Notes: generated from the letters alone by a model not told the origin. 64,000 nt of DNA from a bacterium (GCA_021463485.1 JAJTYJ010000001.1:1378-65377); one strand, 5' to 3'. Numbered from the stretch's first letter, positions 1,037 through 64,000 are shown. Translations and numbers: made by a program.

Positions 1037-1813
1037 TTACTGAACGCTTGACGGTGGGGTCGATGGCGGCTGGTTATTACCTAATACCATATTCTCATCC
1101 ACTAACGTTGCTGGCGGATCTTGTACGACCACTTCTTCTAATGGTTGGGTAGCTGCGGCTGGCGCTGGTGGCACCTGAGCAGCGATAGGCTGCGCTGGAT
1201 CGTTCATATCGTGAAGCGTCGTCGATGATTCTTGGAGTTTCTTAACGCGTTTTCGCGTATCAGCGACTAGAATCAGAATTAAAACATCGAGCAACAATAG
1301 CGGGAAGAGTAAAATTGGCCACAACGTTCCGCCGCCAGTACTAAACACTCCGCTACCCAACGTTGTTTCTTGTTTAGACGCGCCAGCAGTATCGGTGGTG
1401 TCACCGAGCTGAACACCGGTACCGTTCGTGCTTGGAGCTGTTCCGGTGTTCGTACTACCGCTCCCTGTACCGGTTGAGCCGGGCTGTGTATTACTTGTCG
1501 TACCAGAGCCGGTTGTAGAGCCACTAGTATTACCTGTGGTTGAGTTAGTAGTGTTACTGTTTGTATTTGAGTTGGTAGTTGAGTTGCTCGTGCTATTGCT
1601 GGTTGTATTATTACTCGTGTTACCGGTGTTGCCAGTATTGTTATTGGTAGTTGTGCCGCAGTTTGGATCGGGTGATTCTTCCCCTTCAACTACAACCACG
1701 CACGGCTCAGTTGTGGTTGTGTTACTGTTGTTCGTTGATCCGCTACCAGTGCCTTGTGTTGTTTGCCCCTCACCACCTGGCTCAGTTGCCACCTCAGCTC
1801 GGAAGATCCTCAT
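1037..1813 (-). CDS. Ser/Thr/Asn-rich low-complexity envelope protein with a hydrophobic anchor segment
   Basis: The 258-aa ORF is dominated by T/S/N/G repeats followed by 'LWPILLFPLLLLDVLILILVADTRKRVKK' (TM plus basic tail). The in-frame upstream codons, up to the stop at 1907, encode 'LNNKLILPITAVAVAVAIIVFVFSS', a signal/TM-like segment with no ATG/TTG/GTG, so the start may be non-canonical. The opposite-strand ORF 1428..1910 looks like a complement shadow. Confidence 0.45.
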   Translation of the reverse strand: MRIFRAEVATEPGGEGQTTQGTGSGSTNNSNTTTTEPCVVVVEGEESPDPNCGTTTNNNTGNTGNTSNNTTSNSTSNSTTNSNTNSNTTNSTTGNTSGSTTGSGTTSNTQPGSTGTGSGSTNTGTAPSTNGTGVQLGDTTDTAGASKQETTLGSGVFSTGGGTLWPILLFPLLLLDVLILILVADTRKRVKKLQESSTTLHDMNDPAQPIAAQVPPAPAAATQPLEEVVVQDPPATLVDENMVLGNNQPPSTPPSSVQ

Positions 1814-1956: not shown

Positions 1957-1985
1957 TTGACGCTGTGTAAAGTTTACTTTACATT
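1957..1985 (+). promoter_or_regulatory. Sigma70-like promoter of the HTH-Hsp20 gene (-35 TTGACG, 17-nt spacer, -10 TACATT)
   Basis: TTGACG is at 1957-1962 and TACATT at 1980-1985, with an exact 17-nt spacer. The ATG follows at 1999, so the leader is very short. Confidence 0.55.
1966..1983 (+). promoter_or_regulatory. 18-bp perfect palindrome TGTAAAGT-tt-ACTTTACA in the promoter spacer, overlapping the -10
   Basis: The sequence reads directly as an inverted repeat with 8-bp arms and a 2-bp centre. A near-identical copy occurs in the dnaK promoter at 63294..63311. Confidence 0.6.
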
Positions 1986-1998
1986 ATTCCTAGAAACG

Positions 1999-2697
1999 AT
2001 GACAAAATTTCGGTTATTACTTCGAGAACTGCGGCAAGCGAACGACTTGAGCCAAGAAGAATTGGCTCGAGCACTTCAGGTATCGCGACAGTCGATTATC
2101 TCACTTGAGCGCGGGGAGTATCTACCGAGTATGCCGGTACTGATCTCGCTAATTGAGTTTTTCGACTGTCCGATCGACCAGCTGATCGACGGCGTCTCAC
2201 CGAAAAATAATCAACAATTTGTAAACCAAATCGAGAAAGGGGGTGAAAAGCAGATGCAACTAACGCCATGGAGTCCGTTTCAAGCGATTGATCATATGCA
2301 AGAAGAGATGAATAGTATGATCGAACGAACGTTCGGTCGCGGAGATTGGTCTAACGCTCTACAAGCAACGACCGGTGCGATGAACATTCACGAGAGCGAA
2401 AAAGAGTACGAGATCGAATTCCAGGTTCCGGGTTACACGGAAAAGGAAATTACAATCGAGATGACCGAGAATACCCTAACAGTTTCCGGCGCCAAAGAAG
2501 AGGAGAAAAAAGAGGGTAAAGATGTTGTTCGACGAGAATGGCAACACAGCCAATTCAGACGCTCTATCCGCTTTACCCACCCGATCAAAGAGGATAAAGT
2601 CGAGGCGAAAATGGAGAACGGTACGCTCAAAATCATCGCTCCAAAAATAGAGCCAACAAAACCAAAAGTAAAAAAGATCGAAGTTAAGAAAGGTTAG
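1999..2697 (+). CDS. Fusion protein: N-terminal XRE-family HTH domain plus full-length Hsp20/alpha-crystallin small heat-shock protein
   Basis: The N-terminus 'MTKFRLLLRELRQANDLSQEELARALQVSRQSIISLERGEYLPSMPVLISLIEFFDCPIDQL' is a classic Cro/C1-type HTH. Downstream, 'LTPWSPFQAIDHMQEEMNSMIER' matches the sHSP N-terminal region and is followed by an alpha-crystallin domain ('EIEFQVPGYTEKEITIEMTENTLTVSG...REWQHSQFRRSIRF...ENGTLKIIAPK'). The ORF track begins at 1864, but the ATG at 1999 sits right after the promoter. Confidence 0.8.
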   Translation: MTKFRLLLRELRQANDLSQEELARALQVSRQSIISLERGEYLPSMPVLISLIEFFDCPIDQLIDGVSPKNNQQFVNQIEKGGEKQMQLTPWSPFQAIDHMQEEMNSMIERTFGRGDWSNALQATTGAMNIHESEKEYEIEFQVPGYTEKEITIEMTENTLTVSGAKEEEKKEGKDVVRREWQHSQFRRSIRFTHPIKEDKVEAKMENGTLKIIAPKIEPTKPKVKKIEVKKG

Positions 2698-3035: not shown

Positions 3036-3626
3036 TTATTGGTATCTACCTTCAACTCGCCAGCGCAACGGAATCATGGCACCAGATTTCATAATAGTTC
3101 CTCCGTCAGTATTCTCATACTTACCGTGTGCCCAGCCGTAAATTCCTGTAGTGGAGATGTTATTTGTGTTGGCGTTATTCATTCCACCTAGCACACCCTG
3201 ACCCCAAGCGTAACCGTGATTCTGAACAAAAAGATCAGCAGAATCAGGGTTAATAAGCTCAAATGTCCAACTGGTATGGGCTTGATCACCTTCAAACGCA
3301 ACTGCCCACAAGTAGTCTCTTGCCATTTGGCTACCCGCGCCACAAAGACCGTAATTTCTGTAACAGTCCGGCAGCGCTGGGAGTTTCCAGGTTGAAATGT
3401 ATTTAGGGACAGAGTTCTCCTCGTAAGTTACCTGCCACTCACCCGGTCCAATTGCAAACTTTTTCTTTGTTGTGCCTAGTTCCGTTCCAGGGTTGTTATT
3501 GACGTTGATCGTTAACAACTTCATCGCTTGCCATACGGTGTGAGTTGGTACGGCGGCAGAACCGATTCCAGGCGCGATCAAAAGTAACAATGATAATGCG
3601 ACTAAAATACTCGATTTATTCTTCAT
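3036..3626 (-). CDS. Secreted Trp/Cys-containing protein, paralog A of an uncharacterised family
   Basis: It has a signal peptide, 'MKNKSSILVALSLLLLIAPGIGSA'. Family motifs are FAIGPGEW, TWKLPALPDCY, AWGQG, GIYGWAHGKY and IPLRWRV. It overlaps paralog B by 11 nt. Confidence 0.7.
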   Translation of the reverse strand: MKNKSSILVALSLLLLIAPGIGSAAVPTHTVWQAMKLLTINVNNNPGTELGTTKKKFAIGPGEWQVTYEENSVPKYISTWKLPALPDCYRNYGLCGAGSQMARDYLWAVAFEGDQAHTSWTFELINPDSADLFVQNHGYAWGQGVLGGMNNANTNNISTTGIYGWAHGKYENTDGGTIMKSGAMIPLRWRVEGRYQ

Positions 3627-4236
3627 AGCTTACTCCTGTGACATCCCAACGAAGAGGAATCATAACACCCGACCATACGAAACCACCACGATCGCAGTTA
3701 CAGTATCTGGCGTGTGACCAACCGTACGTTCCAGTAGCGATCACATTGTGACTGTTGTCACTATTTTTTCCTCCCAGTACTGCCGAGCCTCGTACGTGGC
3801 TACTAATGTTTGAGAATAAACCGGGATTTAATGGCTCCAGTTCCTGAAATGACCATCTCTGAGGATCGTTTGGATAGTCGGAATAGCTCGTTGCTAGTCC
3901 CCATAAATAGTTATTCACCAGAGCACCGCCTGGCTGGCAGGCAGCGCGACCAGCAGAGGTGTAACAATCTGGTAGCGCCGGAAGTTTCCAAGTTTCCTCG
4001 TAAATTGGGGTGTAGTTGCCACCCGATGCCTGCCGTTCATATTTTACGTACCACTCGGATGGACCAATCACAAACTGACGCTTAGTTGTCTCTAGTTCAC
4101 CGCCGCCGTAGCCGTTCGTGTTAACGACTAGCACTTTTTTTGTTTGCCAGGTGGAACTTATATCCTGAGCGTTGACCGTTGCTACATTGCTCAAAGATAG
4201 GAAGATAGCACCGGCTGCTAACAATAGTTTAATCAT
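3616..4236 (-). CDS. Secreted Trp/Cys-containing protein, paralog B
   Basis: Signal peptide plus FVIGPSEW, TWKLPALPDCY, GTYGWSHARY, GGFVWSG and IPLRWDVTG. The ATGA overlap with paralog C indicates translational coupling. Confidence 0.7.
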   Translation of the reverse strand: MIKLLLAAGAIFLSLSNVATVNAQDISSTWQTKKVLVVNTNGYGGGELETTKRQFVIGPSEWYVKYERQASGGNYTPIYEETWKLPALPDCYTSAGRAACQPGGALVNNYLWGLATSYSDYPNDPQRWSFQELEPLNPGLFSNISSHVRGSAVLGGKNSDNSHNVIATGTYGWSHARYCNCDRGGFVWSGVMIPLRWDVTGVSYEE

Positions 4237-4868
4237 AAAATATCACCACTTACCTTCCATTCAGTTGGTAATAGAAAGCCTGCCCATACAAAACCACCAC
4301 GTCCCCCAACATTGTAGCGACCATGAACCCATCCATATGCGCCCATAAGTGACAAATTATGAATGTTTCGACCGTCTTTTCCTGATATTGTTCCTTGTCC
4401 CCAAGCTCGACCGTTATCCCTGATAAATAGCGCGGGATCATCGGGATTCATTAACCCAAACTTCCAAGTTCTCGCCGGACAGCTAGAAACGTTGGTATCA
4501 CAAACTATTCCCCAAATAAATTTTGAAACGTTCGCACCGCCAGGACTACAGCTGGCAGCGTCAGCATAACAATCAGGCATACTAGGCAATGTCCAAGTTT
4601 CTCTGTACTTCTCTACACCACTTTCAGAGTATGATACTGTCCACTCACCTGGGCCAATCGCAAAGTTTCGTTTACTCCTGCCGAGTTCGTTACCGACATT
4701 ACCCTGAGTATCGATAGTTAAAACTTTCGTTGCTCGCCAATCTTCAACGACGTCCGGGGCGGTTTGTGCGCTAATTCGAGAACTATTTTGGTTCGAATAT
4801 ATAAGAAAAACACCAAGCGCAGCTAATATAAATCCGAGAGTATATTGCAGTATAACTTTCCCTCCCAT
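4233..4868 (-). CDS. Secreted or anchored Trp/Cys-containing protein, paralog C
   Basis: N-terminal signal anchor plus FAIGPGEW, TWTLPSMPDCY, GAYGWVHGRY and GGFVWAG. Confidence 0.7.
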   Translation of the reverse strand: MGGKVILQYTLGFILAALGVFLIYSNQNSSRISAQTAPDVVEDWRATKVLTIDTQGNVGNELGRSKRNFAIGPGEWTVSYSESGVEKYRETWTLPSMPDCYADAASCSPGGANVSKFIWGIVCDTNVSSCPARTWKFGLMNPDDPALFIRDNGRAWGQGTISGKDGRNIHNLSLMGAYGWVHGRYNVGGRGGFVWAGFLLPTEWKVSGDIL

Positions 4869-5683: not shown

Positions 5684-6337
5684 TTAGTTCGTAACCGTCC
5701 CTGTAACAGTCCACTTAAGAGGCATTAGCGTTCCGGAACCTAGGAAGCGAGCTCTACTATCAAAACCTGGCTCGTACCAGTGTTGGAACGTGTACGCACC
5801 GCTTTGCATAATACATTCATCTTCGTCGCCATTTCTTGGCGAAGAAATACAGCTAACAGTCTTTTGAGTGCCGGTACCGCCGTTTAGACGATTTTTCGTG
5901 CTAGTAAAGTCGTTTGGCGCTCGAACAGCAAACGTATAAAGCATACTATTTGTGCCGCCAAGAGCATTCTGTTGCGTAAAGCAACCCGCCATTATCTCAG
6001 CCGTGTTAACACCGCTTATATCGCAGCCCTTTTCGTCAGTATGAGCAAGCATCTGGATATTGGTAATACTCGGACCCGCCCATGTTTCGGTGAAGGTTTT
6101 CGAGCCAACAGTACCGGTGACAGTCCAGCCCCAAACACCGATCCCCGCTTGACCAACTTGCGAACTACCAACACGAACGTCAGCAGTTAGGACATTATTG
6201 GCCGTCCACGTACTTGTATACGGCGTAGTGCCCTGCGCAGAGGTTTTAACGTCCCCCTTAGACACGTAGAGCATCGCAGCGCCAGCCAGCGCCAAAACAA
6301 AACCAATTCCCATATGTAACAACGTTGTTCGATTCAT
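5684..6337 (-). CDS. Secreted protein, divergent fourth member (paralog D) of the same family
   Basis: Signal anchor 'MNRTTLLHMGIGFVLALAGAAMLYV'. It shares 'TW.ANNVLTADV' with 'TWQTKKVLVVNT' in the others, and its C-terminal 'GTLMPLKWTVTGTV' matches their 'MIPLRWDVTG'. Confidence 0.6.
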   Translation of the reverse strand: MNRTTLLHMGIGFVLALAGAAMLYVSKGDVKTSAQGTTPYTSTWTANNVLTADVRVGSSQVGQAGIGVWGWTVTGTVGSKTFTETWAGPSITNIQMLAHTDEKGCDISGVNTAEIMAGCFTQQNALGGTNSMLYTFAVRAPNDFTSTKNRLNGGTGTQKTVSCISSPRNGDEDECIMQSGAYTFQHWYEPGFDSRARFLGSGTLMPLKWTVTGTVTN

Positions 6338-7063: not shown

Positions 7064-7708
7064 ATGTCTAAACGCGGTTTCACCTTAATTGAGGTACTAA
7101 CAACAATTACGATTATCGGAATTTTAGTCGCTATTACGACGATGGTTTATAGTAGCTCGCTTAAACGTTCTCGAGACGGTCAACGTAAAACGGACTTAGA
7201 CAGTATCAAAAACGCGTTAGAGCAATACTATCTCGATAATCGTAGTTACCCGTCGTTTAACAGCACTCGTGGCAATATTTACAACGCTCGCTGGCAATTC
7301 GAAGCTGGTTTAGTTAGTAATTGCGCTTCAAATCGGGCAGCGCTAGCGCCGCTGATTCTCCCTACGATACCCGAGGATCCTATTAATAAGCTACCGGCCT
7401 CAGCAGGCGGATGTAGCGAACTAACTGGTAATAATATGTCCGGAGAATATATCTACTTTGTCGCTGGGAACACCATACCGCCAAACAGCGATCCGCGCCC
7501 AAAAGCAGGCTATTATCTTTTGGCAAAAATGGAAACAGCACCTAGCGTTAATATTAATAATAACGGCGCTAACGATTCGTCATCGATTACCTTTATCCGC
7601 AATAGAGTCCAGGGATGGGGATATGATTTATCGGGAATAGTAATCGGTAACGGAATAAGCGGATCAGTCACTCACAATTACTTCGTTAACTCTAAGCCAA
7701 ACAACTAG
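7064..7708 (+). CDS. Type IV pilin / GspG-ComGC-like major pseudopilin
   Basis: Prepilin N-terminus 'MSKRGFTLIEVLTTITIIGILVAI', followed by the characteristic 'RDGQRKTDLDSIKNALEQYYLDNRSYP' motif. Confidence 0.8.
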   Translation: MSKRGFTLIEVLTTITIIGILVAITTMVYSSSLKRSRDGQRKTDLDSIKNALEQYYLDNRSYPSFNSTRGNIYNARWQFEAGLVSNCASNRAALAPLILPTIPEDPINKLPASAGGCSELTGNNMSGEYIYFVAGNTIPPNSDPRPKAGYYLLAKMETAPSVNINNNGANDSSSITFIRNRVQGWGYDLSGIVIGNGISGSVTHNYFVNSKPNN

Positions 7709-9219
7709 TCTTTCACTAGCACACCGCTAGGAATCGCGGTTTTTTTGGTGACGTTAAAGACGGTAAATGGCTTATTAAATAACATACGCGTCTGCGAATC
7801 GATCGCCGGAATCGCCGAGAAAAATATGCCGCTAACCGGAAGCAGGATTGGCGCTAACAACCACTCTTTAATAATTGTAAGAATGTAGACCGAGCGCTTA
7901 CCAGGACGTGGTGGCACTAGTAGAGATGCCACGAGCATGTTGGCGATCATACCAGTCCACGCTGCTATCAGAAATGTTCTATAAACAGTAGGAAAGTTAT
8001 AACCGAGCACACTATCTCGAAAATCCGGGTTCACGACTATCGGTAGCCAACCGATTAGCAAAATAAACGACTGGGTAGCAAGCGAGTAGTGGGATTCGAA
8101 CAGCCGTAAAAATTGCAGCCATTTGTAGAAAAACGGAATTCTAGGATTACCAAAAGAATGCCGAAAGACGTACGGAACGTCGGAAACCCCCCAAAACCAG
8201 CGACGACGTTGAAGATACTGCTCGCGAAACGTGTCCATAATATCTTCGCCCTGAACTGCGTCCATATAAACCGGCACAAATAGCGGAACCACGTGGTGAT
8301 TGCCGTCAAATCTGAAGTACGAACGCCAGTACTGATGCCCATCTTCAACCACCGTCGCAACCGACCAGAAATCTGTTTGTACTAGGGCTTCGAAACTCTG
8401 AGCGTGGGCGGCGAAGTTACGCGAGTAGTGCGGTCGCATCGCCTGTATGAGTTGCCAGAATGATGAGCCGAGTGCTGTCAGTTTTACCGGTAACGGCACT
8501 TGCCAGATATTATTGAAAAACATCGGCAGGGGCTGGAAGCTTTTATGAATTGGGTCTGGGTCGGCGCAGTACGACCAAGTAAGGTTGGCAAAATAGTCAC
8601 GATCGACCCGGTTATCGGCGTCGAGTGTTGTGAGAATTGCGTCAGAATACTTAATTTTTTTCTCATCAAGATATTCCTTAACCCGACGCGCCGCCCAGGT
8701 AATGTTTGGCCCCTTGCCGCGAACTTCACCTTCAATATCTGCTGGGTGGCTGGTAGCCATAAAATGGAAAAACGCATGTTCGTACTCGTGCGTTAAGATC
8801 TTGGCATACTCCGGCGCTAACTCTTTTTCACGCCCTTCAAACGCCGCAACAACAATCAACCGATCAGCTGGGTAGTTGCTCATTTTTATGGCATCGATGG
8901 TGTGCCGAAGAATTGAGATATCCTCTTTATACGTTGGCACAATGGCGACGTGGTAAAACCTATTCTGTGCCTCGGGATAATCGTTGTTGAGTTTAGTTAG
9001 CCAATCAATTTTACGCTCACGGTTATATCTAGCAAAACCGGCTAGTAAGTATCCAGTGATGAGAAAGACTTTAATTAACCAGTAGATCGCGTAAAGCAAG
9101 ACTAGCATCGTTAGGACAGGCGGGTTAAAAATTGCAAGCAATATTAATCCAGTTAACGTCGTCCAGGTTAGTAATCCCGGAATAATCTCCCAAACTCGGC
9201 TTCGTTGATACCCCAGCAT
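7705..9219 (-). CDS. Processive family-2 glycosyltransferase (cellulose/chitin-synthase-like membrane GT)
   Basis: Multi-TM N- and C-terminal regions flank a GT2 core with 'ILTTLDADN' and the Q-x-x-R-W motif 'QRRRWFWG'. Confidence 0.75.
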   Translation of the reverse strand: MLGYQRSRVWEIIPGLLTWTTLTGLILLAIFNPPVLTMLVLLYAIYWLIKVFLITGYLLAGFARYNRERKIDWLTKLNNDYPEAQNRFYHVAIVPTYKEDISILRHTIDAIKMSNYPADRLIVVAAFEGREKELAPEYAKILTHEYEHAFFHFMATSHPADIEGEVRGKGPNITWAARRVKEYLDEKKIKYSDAILTTLDADNRVDRDYFANLTWSYCADPDPIHKSFQPLPMFFNNIWQVPLPVKLTALGSSFWQLIQAMRPHYSRNFAAHAQSFEALVQTDFWSVATVVEDGHQYWRSYFRFDGNHHVVPLFVPVYMDAVQGEDIMDTFREQYLQRRRWFWGVSDVPYVFRHSFGNPRIPFFYKWLQFLRLFESHYSLATQSFILLIGWLPIVVNPDFRDSVLGYNFPTVYRTFLIAAWTGMIANMLVASLLVPPRPGKRSVYILTIIKEWLLAPILLPVSGIFFSAIPAIDSQTRMLFNKPFTVFNVTKKTAIPSGVLVKD

Positions 9220-57496: not shown

Positions 57497-58552
57497 ATGA
57501 GCGATGCTGTTGAGCTCGTCAAAAACCCTGTCGAATCTGCAAAAGAAGCTGGTTTGCGCTATTTTACCGACTCAAAACTAACAATCTCCCGCCTTAAACA
57601 CGGCGAAGGCTTTAGGTACGTAGATAAAGACGAGCAACCAATTACTGATAAAGAAACGATCGTTAGGATTAAGTCGCTAGTGCTACCGCCTGGCTGGACA
57701 AACGTTCGGATCTCACCAGTAGCTAACAGCCATCTTCAAGCAATTGGCGTAGATGAAAAGGGCCGCAAACAATACCGCTACCACCCCGATTGGCTTAAAT
57801 TTCGCGATCAAACCAAATACGACAAGCTAATCGATTTCGGCAAAGCCCTACCAAAAATTCGTACTCAGGTCTCAGAAGATCTCGCCAAGCACGGCCTGCC
57901 GCGCGAGAAAGTGTTGGCCACAATCGTTAAATTACTCGAAAAAACGATGATTCGAATCGGTAACGAGCAGTACGCTAGAGAGAATCAGTCGTACGGTTTA
58001 ACGACGCTCCAAAATCGCCACGTGGATGTCGGCACTCAAAAAGTAACGATCAATTTCAAGGGCAAAAGTGGGCAATTCCACACCATCGAACTCGAAGATC
58101 GCCGGCTTGCTCGTCTAATTGGCCGGCTTCAGGACTTGCCCGGCCAGGATTTATTCCAGTTTATCGACGAAGACGACAATCTCCACTCAATCGACTCATC
58201 AGACGTTAACGAATATATCCAAGATGCTGCCAACGACTTATTCACCGCCAAGGATTTTCGGACTTGGCGCGGTACCGTGTTAGCCGCCTGGTTTCTAGCA
58301 GACGCTGAGCGCGCCAGAAGCGAGCGAGAAAACAAGCGAATTGTTTCGCAGATTGTTAAAGAAGTCGCCAAAGAGCTCGGTAACACCCCAACAGTCTGTC
58401 GCAAGTGTTACATTCACCCAACCGTTATCGAAACGTTCTTGAGCGACTCTGGTCTAACAATTAAAGAAATTAACACCATTGAAATCGACACGGTCGATTT
58501 ACTGCCGGAAGAAAAAATTGTTTTAGAGTTCTTGAAACAAAATACGGCCTAG
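57497..58552 (+). CDS. Bacterial type IB DNA topoisomerase (poxvirus-like TopIB)
   Basis: 351 aa; 'GFRYVDKDEQPI', 'YRYHPDWLKFRDQTKYDKL', 'IRIGNEQYARENQSYGLTTL', 'FKGKSGQ' and C-terminal 'CRKCYIHP' matching the TopIB catalytic R-K-R-H...Y arrangement. Confidence 0.8.
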   Translation: MSDAVELVKNPVESAKEAGLRYFTDSKLTISRLKHGEGFRYVDKDEQPITDKETIVRIKSLVLPPGWTNVRISPVANSHLQAIGVDEKGRKQYRYHPDWLKFRDQTKYDKLIDFGKALPKIRTQVSEDLAKHGLPREKVLATIVKLLEKTMIRIGNEQYARENQSYGLTTLQNRHVDVGTQKVTINFKGKSGQFHTIELEDRRLARLIGRLQDLPGQDLFQFIDEDDNLHSIDSSDVNEYIQDAANDLFTAKDFRTWRGTVLAAWFLADAERARSERENKRIVSQIVKEVAKELGNTPTVCRKCYIHPTVIETFLSDSGLTIKEINTIEIDTVDLLPEEKIVLEFLKQNTA

Positions 58553-59152
58553 CTATCTATCGAGACTTTTAAGCTGTTCGTAAAGTTCGCGCTGCTCGCG
58601 AGTGAGGCGCTTCGGGATTTCGACGTGCAGCACAACAGTTAAATCACCACGACCGCGACGGGTTTGCTGACCCTTACCACGGAAACGAAAGGCCATACCA
58701 TCTTGGGCACCGGCAGGAATTTTTAACTCAATCTCATCACCAAAGTTAGTTTTAAATCGGACTGTATCTCCGAGCACTGCTTGGGGGATAGAGATGGAGA
58801 GCTGGACTTGAACCTGCGAGAACGCAGATTCAAATAAGTCCTCGAAAATTGAGCCAAAGCCGCCGGCCTGTCCGCCGAATCCCGCTCCAGAAAAATCAAA
58901 TCCGCCAAAACCTTGTCCGCCGGCCTGTCCGCCGAATCCGCCATGCGTTCCAGCGTGGCCGAACTGGTCGTACTGCGCTCGTTTCTGCGGATCCCCAAGT
59001 ACTTGATACGCTTCGTTTATTTCTTTAAATTTTTCGGCATCGCCACCTTTGTCTGGGTGTAACTTATGCGCCTTACTTCGGTAGGCTTTTTTAATCTCTG
59101 CTTCAGACGCAGTTTTTGAAACACCAAGAACGTCGTAATAGTCTTTAGACAT
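58553..59152 (-). CDS. DnaJ-like J-domain co-chaperone lacking the zinc-finger domain
   Basis: J-domain '[32 protein letters not shown]', a G/F-rich region '[22 protein letters not shown]', and a single C-terminal DnaJ beta-domain; no CxxCxGxG repeats. Confidence 0.8.
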
Positions 59153-59789
59153 AGTTAAGCTTTACTTTTCCATTGTGCACTACCAAGAAACTTGCCAGAC
59201 CTGGTCGTAAGAATATCCCAGAGTTAGCAAATCTAGTCGCCGCGTCAATCTCGGGGAGGTGGCTGTGTCCGCAAATTAACCACTTTTCTGACTTATTACT
59301 TTTATGCCAATTTTTCATCCTCTGGTTGCTGGTTTGGTATACATTTAGATATGGTCTCCCGATAAATCTTATTAGCAACCGTTCTAGTACTGAACCAAAA
59401 TACAAAATCCACTTAGGTAAGTTTGGATGTCGCATATCTAGCGTTGGATCGAGTAGATCGCCATGCGCAACGTAGAATTCTGTACCAGCTTGCGAAAACT
59501 CATAGCTCGTCGCTACTCTCTCGGAAAGAATTGAATAATCCTCTACGCTTTTCGGATCGTGGTTACCGAACAAATATACAGCGTTTTTCTGTTTAAAAAG
59601 CGGAAATAACTCTTTCCATCGAGAATCTAAAAATTCTTGCAGGCTCATGCCAAAACCTTCCCACAAATCCCCGTTAATTATTAGCTGATCTGCGTCCGAG
59701 ACAATATTCTTGATTAATTCAAATTTGGCGGGCTCAAACCGCTTTGTTAAATGTAAATCAGAAATAATTACTATTTTCTCGGTAGACAT
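59145..59789 (-). CDS. Calcineurin-like metallophosphoesterase
   Basis: 'IISDLHL', 'INGDLWE', 'LFGNHD' and 'CGHSH' metal-binding motifs. Confidence 0.75.
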
Positions 59790-59812
59790 CCAGCAATATT
59801 TTACCTCAAAAA

Positions 59813-59830
59813 AGTAAAGTTTGCTTTACG
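59813..59830. promoter_or_regulatory. Third copy of the GTAAAG-N4-CTTTAC palindrome (aGTAAAGtttgCTTTACg) in a 56-bp divergent promoter region
   Basis: On the plus side it lies 4 nt upstream of a TACAAT -10 (59834-59839) that would make the 59846 ORF leaderless. On the minus side it lies 10 nt upstream of a TAAAAT -10 (59798-59803) for the phosphoesterase/DnaJ-like operon. Confidence 0.45.
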
Positions 59831-59845
59831 TGCTACAATGTTTTT

Positions 59846-61328: not shown

Positions 61329-61368
61329 ACGGCTCGGTTTGGACTCGTTTCAACCGAGCCGTTTTTTT
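61329..61368. terminator. Rho-independent terminator (ACGGCTCGGTT...AACCGAGCCGT plus TTTTTTT)
   Basis: 11-bp stem followed by 7 T on the plus strand; the U-tract overlaps the dnaK stop codon. Confidence 0.55.
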
Positions 61369-63256
61369 ATTTTGTTTCTTTTGGCTCGTCTGAAGATGGT
61401 TCTTCGGACTTTTTCTCATCACCTGGAGCTGGATCGGCAGACTGTTCGTACATCGCTTGACCAACTTTTTGCATCGCAGATGAGAGTTTCTCTGCTTCGG
61501 CTTTAACTTTTTCGACGTCGTCGCCACCTAAGGCTGCACGTGTCGCGGTGATCGCATCTTCGACTTCGCGCTTATCTTCTGGTTTTACTTTGTCGCCGGC
61601 GTCTTTGAGTGATTTTTCGGCAGTGTGGATAAGAGCTTCGGCCAGATTGCGCTGCTCAACGAGTTCTTTTTTCTTTTTGTCTTCTTCAGCGTGTTTTTCG
61701 GCTTCAGCTTTCATTTTTTCGATTTCGTCGTCAGACAAACCGCTGGAAGACGTGATAGTAATTTTTTGCTCTTTGTTAGTTGCTTTGTCTTTGGCCGAAA
61801 CGTTAAGAATTCCGTTAGCGTCGATATCAAACGTAACTTCGATCTGCGGAACACCGCGCGGCGCAGTTGGGATGCCATCAAGATGAAACTTACCGAGTGT
61901 TCGATTGTCGCTTGCCATCGGTCGCTCGCCTTGTAGAACGTGAATTTCAACTGAGGTTTGATTGTCGGCGGCGGTTGAGAACGTCTCGGTTTTTGAAGCC
62001 GGAATCGTGGTGTTGCGGGCAATCAACGGTGTCATCACGCCACCTAATGTTTCGAGTCCGAGCGTTAGCGGCGTTACATCGAGTAAGAGAATATCTTTCA
62101 CTTCGCCCGACAGAACACCTGCTTGTAGCGCGGCGCCGAGCGCAACCGCTTCGTCTGGGTTGACACCCTTTGACGGCTCTTTTCCGAAAACTTCTTTAAC
62201 CGTTTCTTGAATTAACGGCATTCGGGTCATACCACCAACTAAAATAACTTCGTCGATATCGCTCTTCGAGAGCTTGGCGTCTTTAATCGCTGATTCGCAA
62301 ATGGCAACAGTTTTTTTGATGAGTTCGCCGGTTAGCTGTTCGAGCTTAGCACGGCTGAGTGTTGTAACTAAGTTTTTTGGACCGTCGGCATCGGCTGCGA
62401 TAAACGGCAGATTAATCTCAGCTTCCTGTGTGGTTGAGAGTTCGATCTTGGCTTTTTCAACCGCCTCTTTAATCCGTTGCATCGCCATCGCATCGCCGCG
62501 GAGATCCATACCTTCGGATTTGTTGAATTCTTCAACAACCCAGTCCATAACTTTTAGATCGACATCGTCTCCGCCTAGGTGGGTGTCGCCGTTAGTGGAA
62601 AGTACTTCGAAGCTCGACTCGCCGTCGGTTTCGCCGACTTCGATAATAGTGATATCAAACGTACCGCCACCGAAGTCATAAATCGCGATTTTCTGATCTT
62701 TTTTAGTTTCTTTACCGAGCCCGTACGCAAGTGCGGCAGCGGTTGGCTCGTTGATGATTCGTTTAACTTCTAAACCAGCAATAGTACCGGCGTCTTTAGT
62801 AGCTTGGCGCTGCGAATCGTTAAAATAAGCCGGGACAGTTACAACTGCGCCGTCGACTTTTTCGCCGAGATAACTTTCGGCGTCGGCTTTAATCTTAGCC
62901 AAAATCATCGAGGAAACTTCTTGTGGTGAGTAATCTTTGTCGCCCATTTTTACTTTGACAGCGCTGTCAGATTTAACGATTTTGTACGGCATAAGTTTAA
63001 TGTCACGCTGCACTTCGTCGTCTTCGAACTTGCGTCCAATTAATCTCTTAACTGAATAAATGGTGTTCTCCGGATTCGTAACTGACTGACGCTTTGCCAA
63101 CTGACCAACAAGTCGTTCGCCTTTTTTATTAATGGCCACGATTGATGGCACTAAATTTCCGCCTTCGGCGGTCGGGATCATTTTGGCTTTGCCGCCTTCC
63201 ATAACAGCCGCAGCTGAGTTAGTTGTTCCTAAGTCGATACCAATTATTTTACCCAT
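61367..63256 (-). CDS. dnaK: Molecular chaperone DnaK (Hsp70)
   Basis: '[22 protein letters not shown]', 'DLGGGTFD' and '[22 protein letters not shown]'. Confidence 0.95.
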
Positions 63257-63291
63257 GTAATTCCTCCGTTAGATTTTGCATTACACAAAAA

Positions 63292-63319
63292 ATTGTAAAG
63301 TTTCCTTTACATTTGTCAA
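63292..63319 (-). promoter_or_regulatory. dnaK promoter: -35 TTGACA, 16-nt spacer, -10 TACAAT (minus strand)
   Basis: Read on the minus strand as 'TTGACAaatgtaaaggaaacttTACAAT'. A GGAGG Shine-Dalgarno lies 6 nt upstream of the dnaK ATG. Confidence 0.6.
63294..63311. promoter_or_regulatory. 18-bp palindrome TGTAAAGTTTCCTTTACA in the dnaK promoter spacer, overlapping the -10
   Basis: It differs from the 1966..1983 element at one central position. The geometry is the same: the terminal TACA of the repeat is the first four bases of the -10. Confidence 0.6.
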
Positions 63320-63338
63320 GAAATACTGCTCTAAGTAA

Positions 63339-63713
63339 TTGCCTCTGCGGGAGAATATGGTACAATTCTCGCACAACTGGAGGTGCACTTTGGAGTTGGG
63401 GCCGAATTCAAGGAGAAACTACGACTACTTCGTAGCGAACTTCCCACGACTGAGGCATTTTATCGAGATCACCTACTCGACTTGCCCACACAGGGCAACG
63501 CGCATGATCTTCGGGCTTCTCCGGGCAACCAGGTCGCCGGGCACGTACGATCCCACAATATCACGCATGAGTAATAACGAGATAATCTCGCCCGAGACCC
63601 GATCTCGTCTGGAAGAAGTCAGAGGAATCGGGGTGGGATGCGTGGTGCTCTTCGACGAGGTGACCAAACAGTGGCGAGAGGAATATCCCGAGGACTTTTC
63701 GTCGGAAGACTAA
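63339..63713 (+). CDS. Hypothetical protein divergent from dnaK
   Basis: 124-aa ORF with a TTG start (ATG at 63357), followed by a terminator hairpin. Confidence 0.3.
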   Translation: MPLRENMVQFSHNWRCTLELGPNSRRNYDYFVANFPRLRHFIEITYSTCPHRATRMIFGLLRATRSPGTYDPTISRMSNNEIISPETRSRLEEVRGIGVGCVVLFDEVTKQWREEYPEDFSSED

Positions 63714-63747
63714 GTTTGAGAGCAATAAGGTATGTAATGTAATTGGT

Positions 63748-63790
63748 CCAAATGCCGCCTTTTACCTTTCGGGGAATGGCGGCGTTTTTC
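63748..63790. terminator. Terminator hairpin (GCCGCC...GGCGGC plus GTTTTTC) between the 63339 ORF and grpE
   Basis: 'atGCCGCCttttacctttcggggaatGGCGGCgtttttc'. Confidence 0.5.
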
Positions 63791-63794
63791 TTTA

Positions 63795-64000
63795 ACTCTT
63801 TGAGACCCGGACCTTAGCTGGGCGAATTACTTTACCATTAATCTGCCAGCCGGATTCAACCTCGTCGATGATATGCTCAGCCGGAACTTCGGTGCTATTT
63901 TCGTACGAGATCGCCTCGTGCAAGTTGTGGTTAAACGGTTGGCCTTTAGTCGGGATACGTTCCAGCCCGGCTGCGGCCAGTGTCGCTTCGAGCTGCTGTT
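63795..64000 (-). CDS. grpE: Nucleotide exchange factor GrpE (C-terminal part; 5' end outside the window)
   Basis: The minus-strand translation ends '...LEATLAAAGLERIPTKGQPFNHNLHEAISYENSTEVPAEHIIDEVESGWQINGKVIRPAKVRVSKS', the GrpE beta-domain. The stop is at 63792-63794. Confidence 0.85.

Follow-up and report, generated by a model that had tools for sequence, protein, structure and literature searches.

An 18-bp promoter palindrome shared by dnaK and an HTH-Hsp20 fusion gene points to a heat-shock regulon in Berkelbacteria-like Patescibacteria

The stretch of bacterial DNA considered here, 64 kb in length (GCA_021463485.1, JAJTYJ010000001.1:1378-65377; hereafter the window, with coordinates counted from its first letter), carries the chaperone gene dnaK towards one end and, towards the other, a gene for a protein in which a helix-turn-helix (HTH) domain of the XRE type is joined to a small heat-shock protein (sHSP) of the Hsp20 family. 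The promoters of both genes hold the same palindrome, TGTAAAG-N4-CTTTACA, which we take, with very little doubt, to be the operator of a conserved chaperone regulon. A preliminary description made from the sequence alone had gone further, proposing that the shared operator marks a heat-shock regulon under the fusion protein; the conserved promoters described below support that proposal, with the fusion as the probable binder. The features on which the argument turns are these:

63294-63311: operator O(dnaK), palindrome TGTAAAG-TTTC-CTTTACA, with the core GTAAAG-N4-CTTTAC at 63295-63310
63319..63314, minus strand: -35 hexamer of dnaK, TTGACA, from a consensus scan
63297..63292, minus strand: -10 hexamer of dnaK, TACAAT, whose bases 1-4 are the last four of the operator
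63267..63263, minus strand: Shine-Dalgarno sequence of dnaK, GGAGG, read off the sequence
61367-63256, minus strand: dnaK, 629 aa, with its start ATG at 63256
63798-64000, minus strand: 3' part of grpE, cut by the window end, found by tblastn with GrpE
1966-1983: operator O(self), TGTAAAG-TTTA-CTTTACA (TGTAAAGTTTACTTTACA), in the fusion-gene promoter
1957..1985, plus strand: fusion-gene promoter, TTGACG (1957), 17-nt spacer, TACATT (1985), a 9/12 match to the consensus
1999-2697, plus strand: candidate regulator, 232 aa, an XRE/Cro-C1 HTH, a linker and a complete sHSP, from Pfam, alignment and AlphaFold2 (AF2)
59813-59830: third operator copy, AGTAAAG-TTTG-CTTTACG (AGTAAAGTTTGCTTTACG), with the exact 12-base core
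58553-59789, minus strand: candidate regulated operon, a metallophosphoesterase gene (59145-59789) and a gene for a short DnaJ (58553-59152)

Read on the minus strand, the DNA upstream of dnaK runs ...TTTC-TTGACA-AA-TGTAAAG-GAAA-CTT-TACAAT-TTTTTGTGTAATGCAAAATCTAAC-GGAGG-AATTAC-ATG, and a promoter scan rates TTGACA, the 16-nt spacer and TACAAT (63319..63292) as an 11/12 match to the consensus. Promoter and palindrome lie exactly as the preliminary description had placed them, and its remark that the terminal TACA of the repeat provides bases 1-4 of the -10 hexamer is true of dnaK and the fusion gene alike. Two of its comparisons need qualifying. The two operators were called 17/18 identical, which holds only when plus strand is compared with plus strand; in the direction of the genes the four central base pairs are complementary (GAAA vs TTTA), and it is the 14 half-site bases that are identical in either orientation. 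The promoter geometry was called identical, and the overlap with the -10 hexamer is indeed the same, but the -35 hexamer stands one base closer in dnaK (a 16-nt rather than a 17-nt spacer). The operator centre (63301-63304; 1973-1976) is biased and strand-flipped, reading TTTN in gene direction in fusion promoters and GAAA or GGAG in most dnaK promoters; DNA bending, or an ancestral cassette inversion, could lie behind this flip.

The predicted transcription start site (TSS) gives dnaK a leader of ~35 nt that includes GGAGG. The fusion genes of the window and its relatives present a contrast, as their start codons follow the -10 hexamer by 6-20 nt, making their mRNAs leaderless or nearly so. 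In the window the ATG (1999) comes 13 nt after the -10 hexamer, without a Shine-Dalgarno sequence and with a nearly leaderless mRNA as the result, and the same arrangement, with the ATG 6-13 nt after the -10 hexamer and no Shine-Dalgarno sequence, is seen on inspection of both the window (1980-2001) and four of the loci retrieved for comparison, which are cited here by L numbers (L023, L024, L027, L029). A hairpin sits directly 3' of the dnaK stop codon, and the gene looks monocistronic; grpE lies upstream of it, as in relatives (L154-L159).

The third copy of the palindrome, which the preliminary description had missed, falls between a small plus-strand open reading frame (ORF) and the minus-strand metallophosphoesterase-dnaJ operon, which it likely regulates; the DnaJ encoded there is a short form made up of a J domain and DnaJ_C. 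On the minus strand this copy is arranged as at dnaK, though its hexamers, TTGTAG (59838..59833) and TACTTT (59816..59811), 16 nt apart, are weak. All three copies are intergenic, and by a rough gene map one stands upstream of each of the window's three chaperone loci. Three exact cores (GTAAAG-N4-CTTTAC) in 64 kb compare with ~0.004 expected (64000/4^12); the looser pattern, with up to two mismatches, also gives three matches, against 0.28 expected, and none of 100 shuffles reaches three. On these figures a chance origin can be excluded.

Absence of the motif from orthologous promoters was the finding that the preliminary description had held out as speaking against it, and the opposite was found: the operator is present in 29/29 fusion promoters, 7/7 dnaK promoters and 3/3 groES-groEL promoters. 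For the fusion gene, one genome per species was scanned, which yielded 29 loci with orthologues at 31-96% identity, 28 of them with upstream DNA. In these 28 and in the window (31-100% identity) the core is exact and its place in the promoter unchanged: the gene is immediately preceded by TTGAC(A)-N3/4-TGTAAAG-N4-CTTTACA(T/A)T, with divergence among them at the four central base pairs of the operator and in its flanks. Across the 576 kb of fetched loci, the Patescibacteria fusion loci hold no further core at 0-1 mismatch, and the sole other near-matches are one-mismatch sites in two Glutamicibacter loci. In two distant lineages clpB follows directly 3' of the fusion gene (L026 10001-13428; L041 3690-6436), an arrangement that looks like an operon of regulator and clpB controlled from this operator. 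Apart from clpB in L026, the flanks of the fusion genes (L001-L029, ~20 kb each) are without chaperone genes, which neither supports nor contradicts a regulon.

The chaperone promoters tell the same story from the other side. DnaK orthologues were picked by protein similarity only (n = 7; L154-L160; 97, 82, 81, 80, 74, 72 and 72% identity), and six of the operators before their genes are exact, in TTGACA...TACA(A/T)T promoters; the seventh, TGTCAAG-TTTA-CTTTACA in L160, has a single mismatch. The three groES-groEL operons, chosen by GroEL similarity only, carry the exact operator, and the geometry of operator and promoter is the same in 29 fusion, 8 dnaK and 3 groES promoters, none of which was selected for it. 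The dnaJ-associated site recurs as well, exact in L154, where it stands upstream of (phosphoesterase-)dnaJ; the copies in L155 and L159 each have one mismatch. Two of the dnaK loci share contigs with the fusion loci L003 and L013; fusion and target are co-located in the window, on JALHMV010000001.1 (L003, L155) and on JBBUAP010000001.1 (L013, P0158), and the closed genome CP066697.1 has the operator on both its fusion gene (L166) and groES-groEL (L162). Comparison of the window with L154, whose DnaK is 97% identical, shows how closely the block has been kept: 65 nt of promoter and operator upstream of dnaK are 98% alike, and beyond them only the 3' end of grpE (88%) aligns. The DNA between grpE and dnaK is otherwise unrelated (window 63320-63797 vs L154 3385-3935).

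A metagenome scan that began from the motif, TTGAC-N3/4-TGTAAAG-N4-CTTTACA, returned at least 122 matches in at least 120 stretches. Among the matches listed, dnaK is the first gene downstream in 20, often with dnaJ after it; grpE in four, three of which run on into dnaK-dnaJ whilst the fourth contig ends early; and groES-groEL in 10. One each leads into clpB, clpP and a DUF3467 gene. The fusion of HTH and alpha-crystallin domain (ACD) comes first in 17 of the matches listed, and a probable fusion, truncated or divergent, in seven. In 39 a small membrane protein, often of the DUF2178 kind, comes first and an XRE protein of 65-80 aa second; a small XRE is the first gene in six, and 16 are given no downstream gene class, mostly for want of downstream DNA. 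The DnaK proteins found in this way are, among the matches listed, 66-84% identical to that of the window, and the operator wiring therefore spans a deep clade. The same operator-promoter also stands before the DUF3467 gene just mentioned (L043, a minus-strand match) and a glutamate dehydrogenase-like gene (L114 48-75); either could be an additional member of the regulon or a coincidental match.

With so many copies to hand, we can ask whether the palindrome needs a protein at all, or whether it could instead be an RNA thermometer or hairpin, or else a special promoter consensus. In favour of this, its arms can pair into a 7-bp hairpin and it is fused to the -10 hexamer. Its position, however, is upstream of any TSS predicted from that hexamer, so that it would not be transcribed; the folding of the dnaK leader does not surpass that of shuffled controls (z = -1.6), and the region has no match in Rfam. 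These three points count against an RNA element. Nor does the left half-site, TGTAAAG, correspond to any sigma-70 promoter element. Over some 160 copies or more, the half-sites are invariant and show no covariation, with the central four base pairs free to vary, a pattern typical of dimeric proteins that bind DNA. We therefore give the protein-free explanation hardly any credence, and regard the palindrome as an operator.

What might bind it? In the window, no HTH of this subfamily and no ACD occurs outside the fusion gene. The HTH_3 domain of the fusion (PF01381; E 4.4e-16, 59.1 bits vs a cut-off of 23) covers residues 8-62, and its HSP20 domain (PF00011; E 2e-20) spans profile positions 2-102 of 102. 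The AF2 model, that of a monomer and so informative on domain folds and silent on dimer or oligomer, has a confident five-helix HTH (residues 5-65, predicted local distance difference test (pLDDT) about 90), a low-confidence linker and arm (69-123) and a confident alpha-crystallin beta-sandwich (125-216, pLDDT about 88). By sequence the sHSP half looks intact and bona fide: an N-terminal arm (~85-123) precedes the ACD (125-216) and a C-terminal K-I-E-V of the I-x-I/V type, and in an alignment of 33 fusions this last motif is kept as K-I-E-V, I-A-V, I-T-V or I-S-V, the arm is kept as PW.PFQAID..H.EM...VE.TFGRGDW, and the recognition helix SRQSIISLE is invariant. The closest solved relatives of the C-terminal half are plant, yeast and archaeal sHSPs, wheat Hsp16.9 being the best match in a search of PDB sequences (E 1.4e-11). 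The HTH+HSP20 architecture is common to 131 homologues, and those with a named source, from Candidatus Berkelbacteria, Patescibacteria and metagenome-assembled genomes labelled Saccharimonadales, are titled only 'Hsp20 family protein'. A profile search of 1.84 billion cluster representatives found 73 proteins at E <= 1e-30, ~50 of them single-stretch, full-length fusions; small as it is, the family is diverse. The gene divergent from the fusion gene (1037-1813, minus strand) encodes a protein of 258 aa and low complexity, with an abundance of Thr, Asn, Ser and Gly and a single hydrophobic segment; it is conserved in L001.

The HTH half leads to a well-characterised repressor, as its closest solved relative is CylR2 of Enterococcus faecalis (E 1.5e-7, 33% identity). 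In the literature CylR2 is described as a repressor that binds the cytolysin promoter (PMC3709268). We find in the cyl promoter region on an E. faecalis plasmid the perfect repeat TTGTCAAGTG-T-CACTTGACAA, i.e. TGTCAAG-N5-CTTGACA, each half-site of which differs from that of the present operator at one base; the CylR2 half-site TGTCAAG also turns up in the dnaK site of L160 and the dnaJ site of L159. It is exactly this repeat that CylR2 reportedly contacts, in what is said to be work of Rumpel et al. from 2004 in EMBO J. The recognition helix of the fusion (VSRQSIISLERGEYLPS, against VSRQTINGIEKNKYNPS in CylR2) fits the pattern SRQ(S/T)I...E...(Y)xPS of the CylR2-like subfamily, and the fusion shares with that subfamily a TGT(A/C)AAG inverted repeat in its own promoter. 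Small XRE proteins with the helix SRQTI..IE..KY.PS would be autoregulated through the identical operator, and the class-2 consensus common to the small XREs that use it is SRQ(S/T)I..(L/I)E...(Y)xPS. One of these small XREs, a 65-aa protein of Glutamicibacter protophormiae JCM 1973, has a helix, VSRQSIISLE, identical to that of the fusion, and its own promoter, which is leaderless, holds a TGTAAAG site; it is encoded after a leaderless ORF for a 172-aa membrane protein (L031 9436-10186). As in the small XREs, the operator in every fusion promoter is, by its position, the signature of autoregulation. In all, we hold it likely that the operator is bound by the fusion, acting as a repressor.

Could the fusion gene be merely a target, bound by a separate small CylR2-like XRE from elsewhere in the genome? 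Many small XRE proteins do use the identical promoter-operator, the inspected part of the window's genome amounts to 64 kb, and a close relative, L154, has an extra 68-aa XRE near dnaK. Against this stand the fusion gene's position as the only HTH of the subfamily in the window, the operator in the promoter of every fusion gene examined, an autoregulatory arrangement that also typifies class-2 XREs, and an invariant fusion helix shared exactly with a class-2 XRE of Glutamicibacter that has a TGTAAAG site before its own operon. The extra XRE of L154, moreover, differs in its helix (VVRQTIAY) and in the repeat upstream of it, and the window does not have it. We consider a separate binder unlikely. 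The L154 insert itself lies between dnaK and an M23 peptidase gene (7254-8369) and encodes the 68-aa XRE (helix VVRQTIAYLE) together with a DUF6159 protein; this XRE has its own, distinct inverted repeat, ATGTTATA...TATAACAT, and the insert is absent from the window. As an alternative binder we judge it unlikely, given its differing helix and repeat and its absence from the window.

Several points nonetheless weigh against a heat-shock regulon run by the fusion. The same promoter-operator is found at 45 or more modules of a membrane protein and a small XRE in unrelated bacteria, and the motif alone does not identify the fusion, because these modules use it without any heat-shock link. They come from genomes of 25-70% G+C content (the set within L040-L152, e.g. 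L066 115-141, L075 and L055), and their make-up resembles the CylR1/CylR2 pair. The 68-aa XRE near dnaK in L154 counts on this side too, as does the extent of the inspection, 64 kb of one genome, which leaves room for a second CylR2-like regulator of the same specificity. The promoter around the window's third site is weak, and it is uncertain which of the two strands that site would control. The predicted regulon, furthermore, is not uniform, because the grpE promoter of the window's nearest relatives (L154-L159) has no site with up to two mismatches, the only match near grpE being a two-mismatch one ~90 nt upstream in L157. The sHSP half, for its part, could serve solely as an oligomerisation module. 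Finally, binding, expression and TSS are all predictions from sequence. The preliminary description had looked to grpE, groESL and clpB as further places for the motif: it is present upstream of all three in relatives, and wanting at grpE in the closest ones. With no grpE-promoter site in L154-L159, we reject grpE as part of the regulon for the lineage of the window; it carries the operator only in other lineages (L051, L057, L062, L071).

Setting these points beside the conservation of operator and geometry, we think it likely that the palindrome is the heat-shock operator of a Berkelbacteria-like clade of Patescibacteria, ultra-small bacteria within the Candidate Phyla Radiation (CPR), and that the fusion repressor runs the regulon. 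The half-site centres of the 18-bp dyad are 11 bp apart, which puts the half-sites on one face of the helix, and a dimer of the 232-aa XRE-HTH/sHSP fusion would bind TGTAAAG-N4-CTTTACA there. The operator occupies the spacer between the -35 and -10 hexamers of strong sigma-70-type promoters and extends over the first four positions of the -10 hexamer; a bound fusion would, because of this position, block RNA polymerase, and repression by promoter occlusion appears well supported by the promoter sequences. The operator on the fusion's own gene would provide negative autoregulation, whilst the remainder of the predicted regulon would take in dnaK and the dnaJ operon in the window, and groES-groEL, grpE-dnaK-dnaJ, clpB and clpP in relatives. 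It would stand in for HrcA/CIRCE, which fills this role in other bacteria.

A site within the -35/-10 spacer is also where MerR-type activators bind, and we considered whether the fusion could activate by remodelling the spacer in the MerR manner. Promoters activated in that way have over-long spacers of 19-20 nt; those here are 16-17 nt, with near-consensus hexamers (TTGACA/TACAAT, 11/12). The fusion is of the XRE and not the MerR type, its closest characterised relative, CylR2, is a repressor, and the operator covers four bases of the -10 hexamer. Activation is thus very improbable, and we return to the fusion as a repressor.

How would such a repressor be released? Heat or unfolded proteins would act on the sHSP half, either through a temperature-dependent oligomeric state or through sequestration on denatured clients; with the repressor off the DNA, the chaperone genes and the fusion gene itself would be switched on, and once the clients had been cleared by DnaK and ClpB, free fusion would rebind the operators. 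The sHSP half is a plausible sensor, a role to which we assign about an even chance. Perhaps, then, a single polypeptide is both chaperone and master heat-shock repressor, its sHSP half sensing temperature or unfolded load and pulling the attached HTH away from the operators of dnaK, groESL, grpE, clpB, clpP and its own gene, as a thermostat replacing HrcA/CIRCE in a clade of CPR bacteria with reduced genomes; in this evenly balanced proposal, a CylR2-type HTH would have been recruited along with a ready-made promoter-operator cassette.

Comparison with known systems helps to place the proposal. HrcA/CIRCE likewise sets a repressor on a conserved inverted repeat in sigma-70-type dnaK and groESL promoters, the same genes as here, and has feedback through the chaperone GroEL; its operator, however, is TTAGCACTC-N9-GAGTGCTAA and not TGTAAAG-N4-CTTTACA, and the regulator here is an XRE HTH fused to an sHSP, with the presumed chaperone sensor in the same polypeptide. 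In the window and L001-L161 (1.35 Mb, with 24 dnaK/grpE and 10 groES promoters), there is no CIRCE with up to three mismatches, and the same 1.35 Mb hold no HAIR, CTTGAGT-N7-ACTCAAG, with up to one mismatch. A Parcubacteria outgroup differs: the groES-groEL upstream region of L165 (~2105-2135) has a CIRCE-like TTAGCACTC-N9-AAGTGCTAA, with one mismatch, seen by eye, and is without the TGTAAAG palindrome, which suggests a lineage-specific replacement of HrcA/CIRCE within the CPR. The neighbours of grpE-dnaK in L154-L160 are ComEC, MBL and YebC genes, and no hrcA adjoins in these local neighbourhoods. HspR/HAIR, of Streptomyces, Mycobacterium and Helicobacter, is similar in being an autoregulated repressor of dnaK, clpB and groESL that acts through a promoter-overlapping inverted repeat. 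HspR is of the MerR type, is encoded in the dnaK operon and has DnaK as a non-covalently bound corepressor, whereas the present regulator is an HTH_3 protein, is encoded separately and has its sHSP covalently joined.

CylR2 (PDB 1UTX, 2XIU; membrane partner CylR1) is alike in its HTH, in repressing as a promoter-binding homodimer and in its near-identical half-site. It differs as a 66-aa single domain that serves a toxin operon and quorum sensing through a membrane protein, in its half-site spacing of N5 rather than N4, and in having neither an sHSP domain nor a chaperone regulon. Members of the CylR2-like subfamily are 65-80 aa long and co-transcribed with a small membrane protein of the CylR1 or DUF2178 type; the fusion departs from this, with no membrane-protein gene in its operon. 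Heat-shock repressors genetically linked to an sHSP gene are known in RheA/hsp18 of Streptomyces albus, where RheA doubles as a thermosensor, and in archaeal HSR1/Phr regulators, which count hsp20 among their targets; in these systems regulator and sHSP are separate proteins and the regulators belong to unrelated families, in contrast to the one polypeptide here, whose predicted regulon covers the major chaperone machines. Full-text literature searches, incomplete in coverage and so compatible with a prior description, found none of such a regulator or operator.

Two further groups of genes in the window deserve a brief description. At 3036-4868 and 5684-6337 lie four tandem paralogues for ~200-aa proteins with signal-peptide-like N-termini, which share motifs such as TWKLPALPDCY and GxYGWxHGRY. 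At 57497-58552, on the plus strand, a bacterial type IB topoisomerase (Topoisom_I + Top1B_N_bact) is encoded convergently with the dnaJ-like gene, with the two stop codons adjacent.

To conclude, the architecture of the regulator and the operator are new here, and a covalent chaperone feedback is probably so as well. Bacterial heat-shock control is understood from sigma-32, HrcA/CIRCE, HspR/HAIR, CtsR and RheA. The CPR makes up a large share of bacterial diversity, most of it uncultured, and we know of no heat-shock gene control described for it. Chaperone titration as practised by HrcA/GroEL, HspR/DnaK and sigma-32/DnaK makes use of non-covalent partners; a covalent chaperone-repressor fusion would, if true, be its most direct form yet. 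The operator-promoter cassette is compact and strong, and it is portable, since the same module occurs in genomes of 25-70% G+C, whilst the cultivable Glutamicibacter, with an XRE of identical helix, offers a tractable model for the DNA recognition part. For the CPR, the finding puts forward a concrete regulon, with a defined 18-bp operator, a regulator gene and targets, and the operator could serve to mark heat-shock genes in CPR metagenomes.

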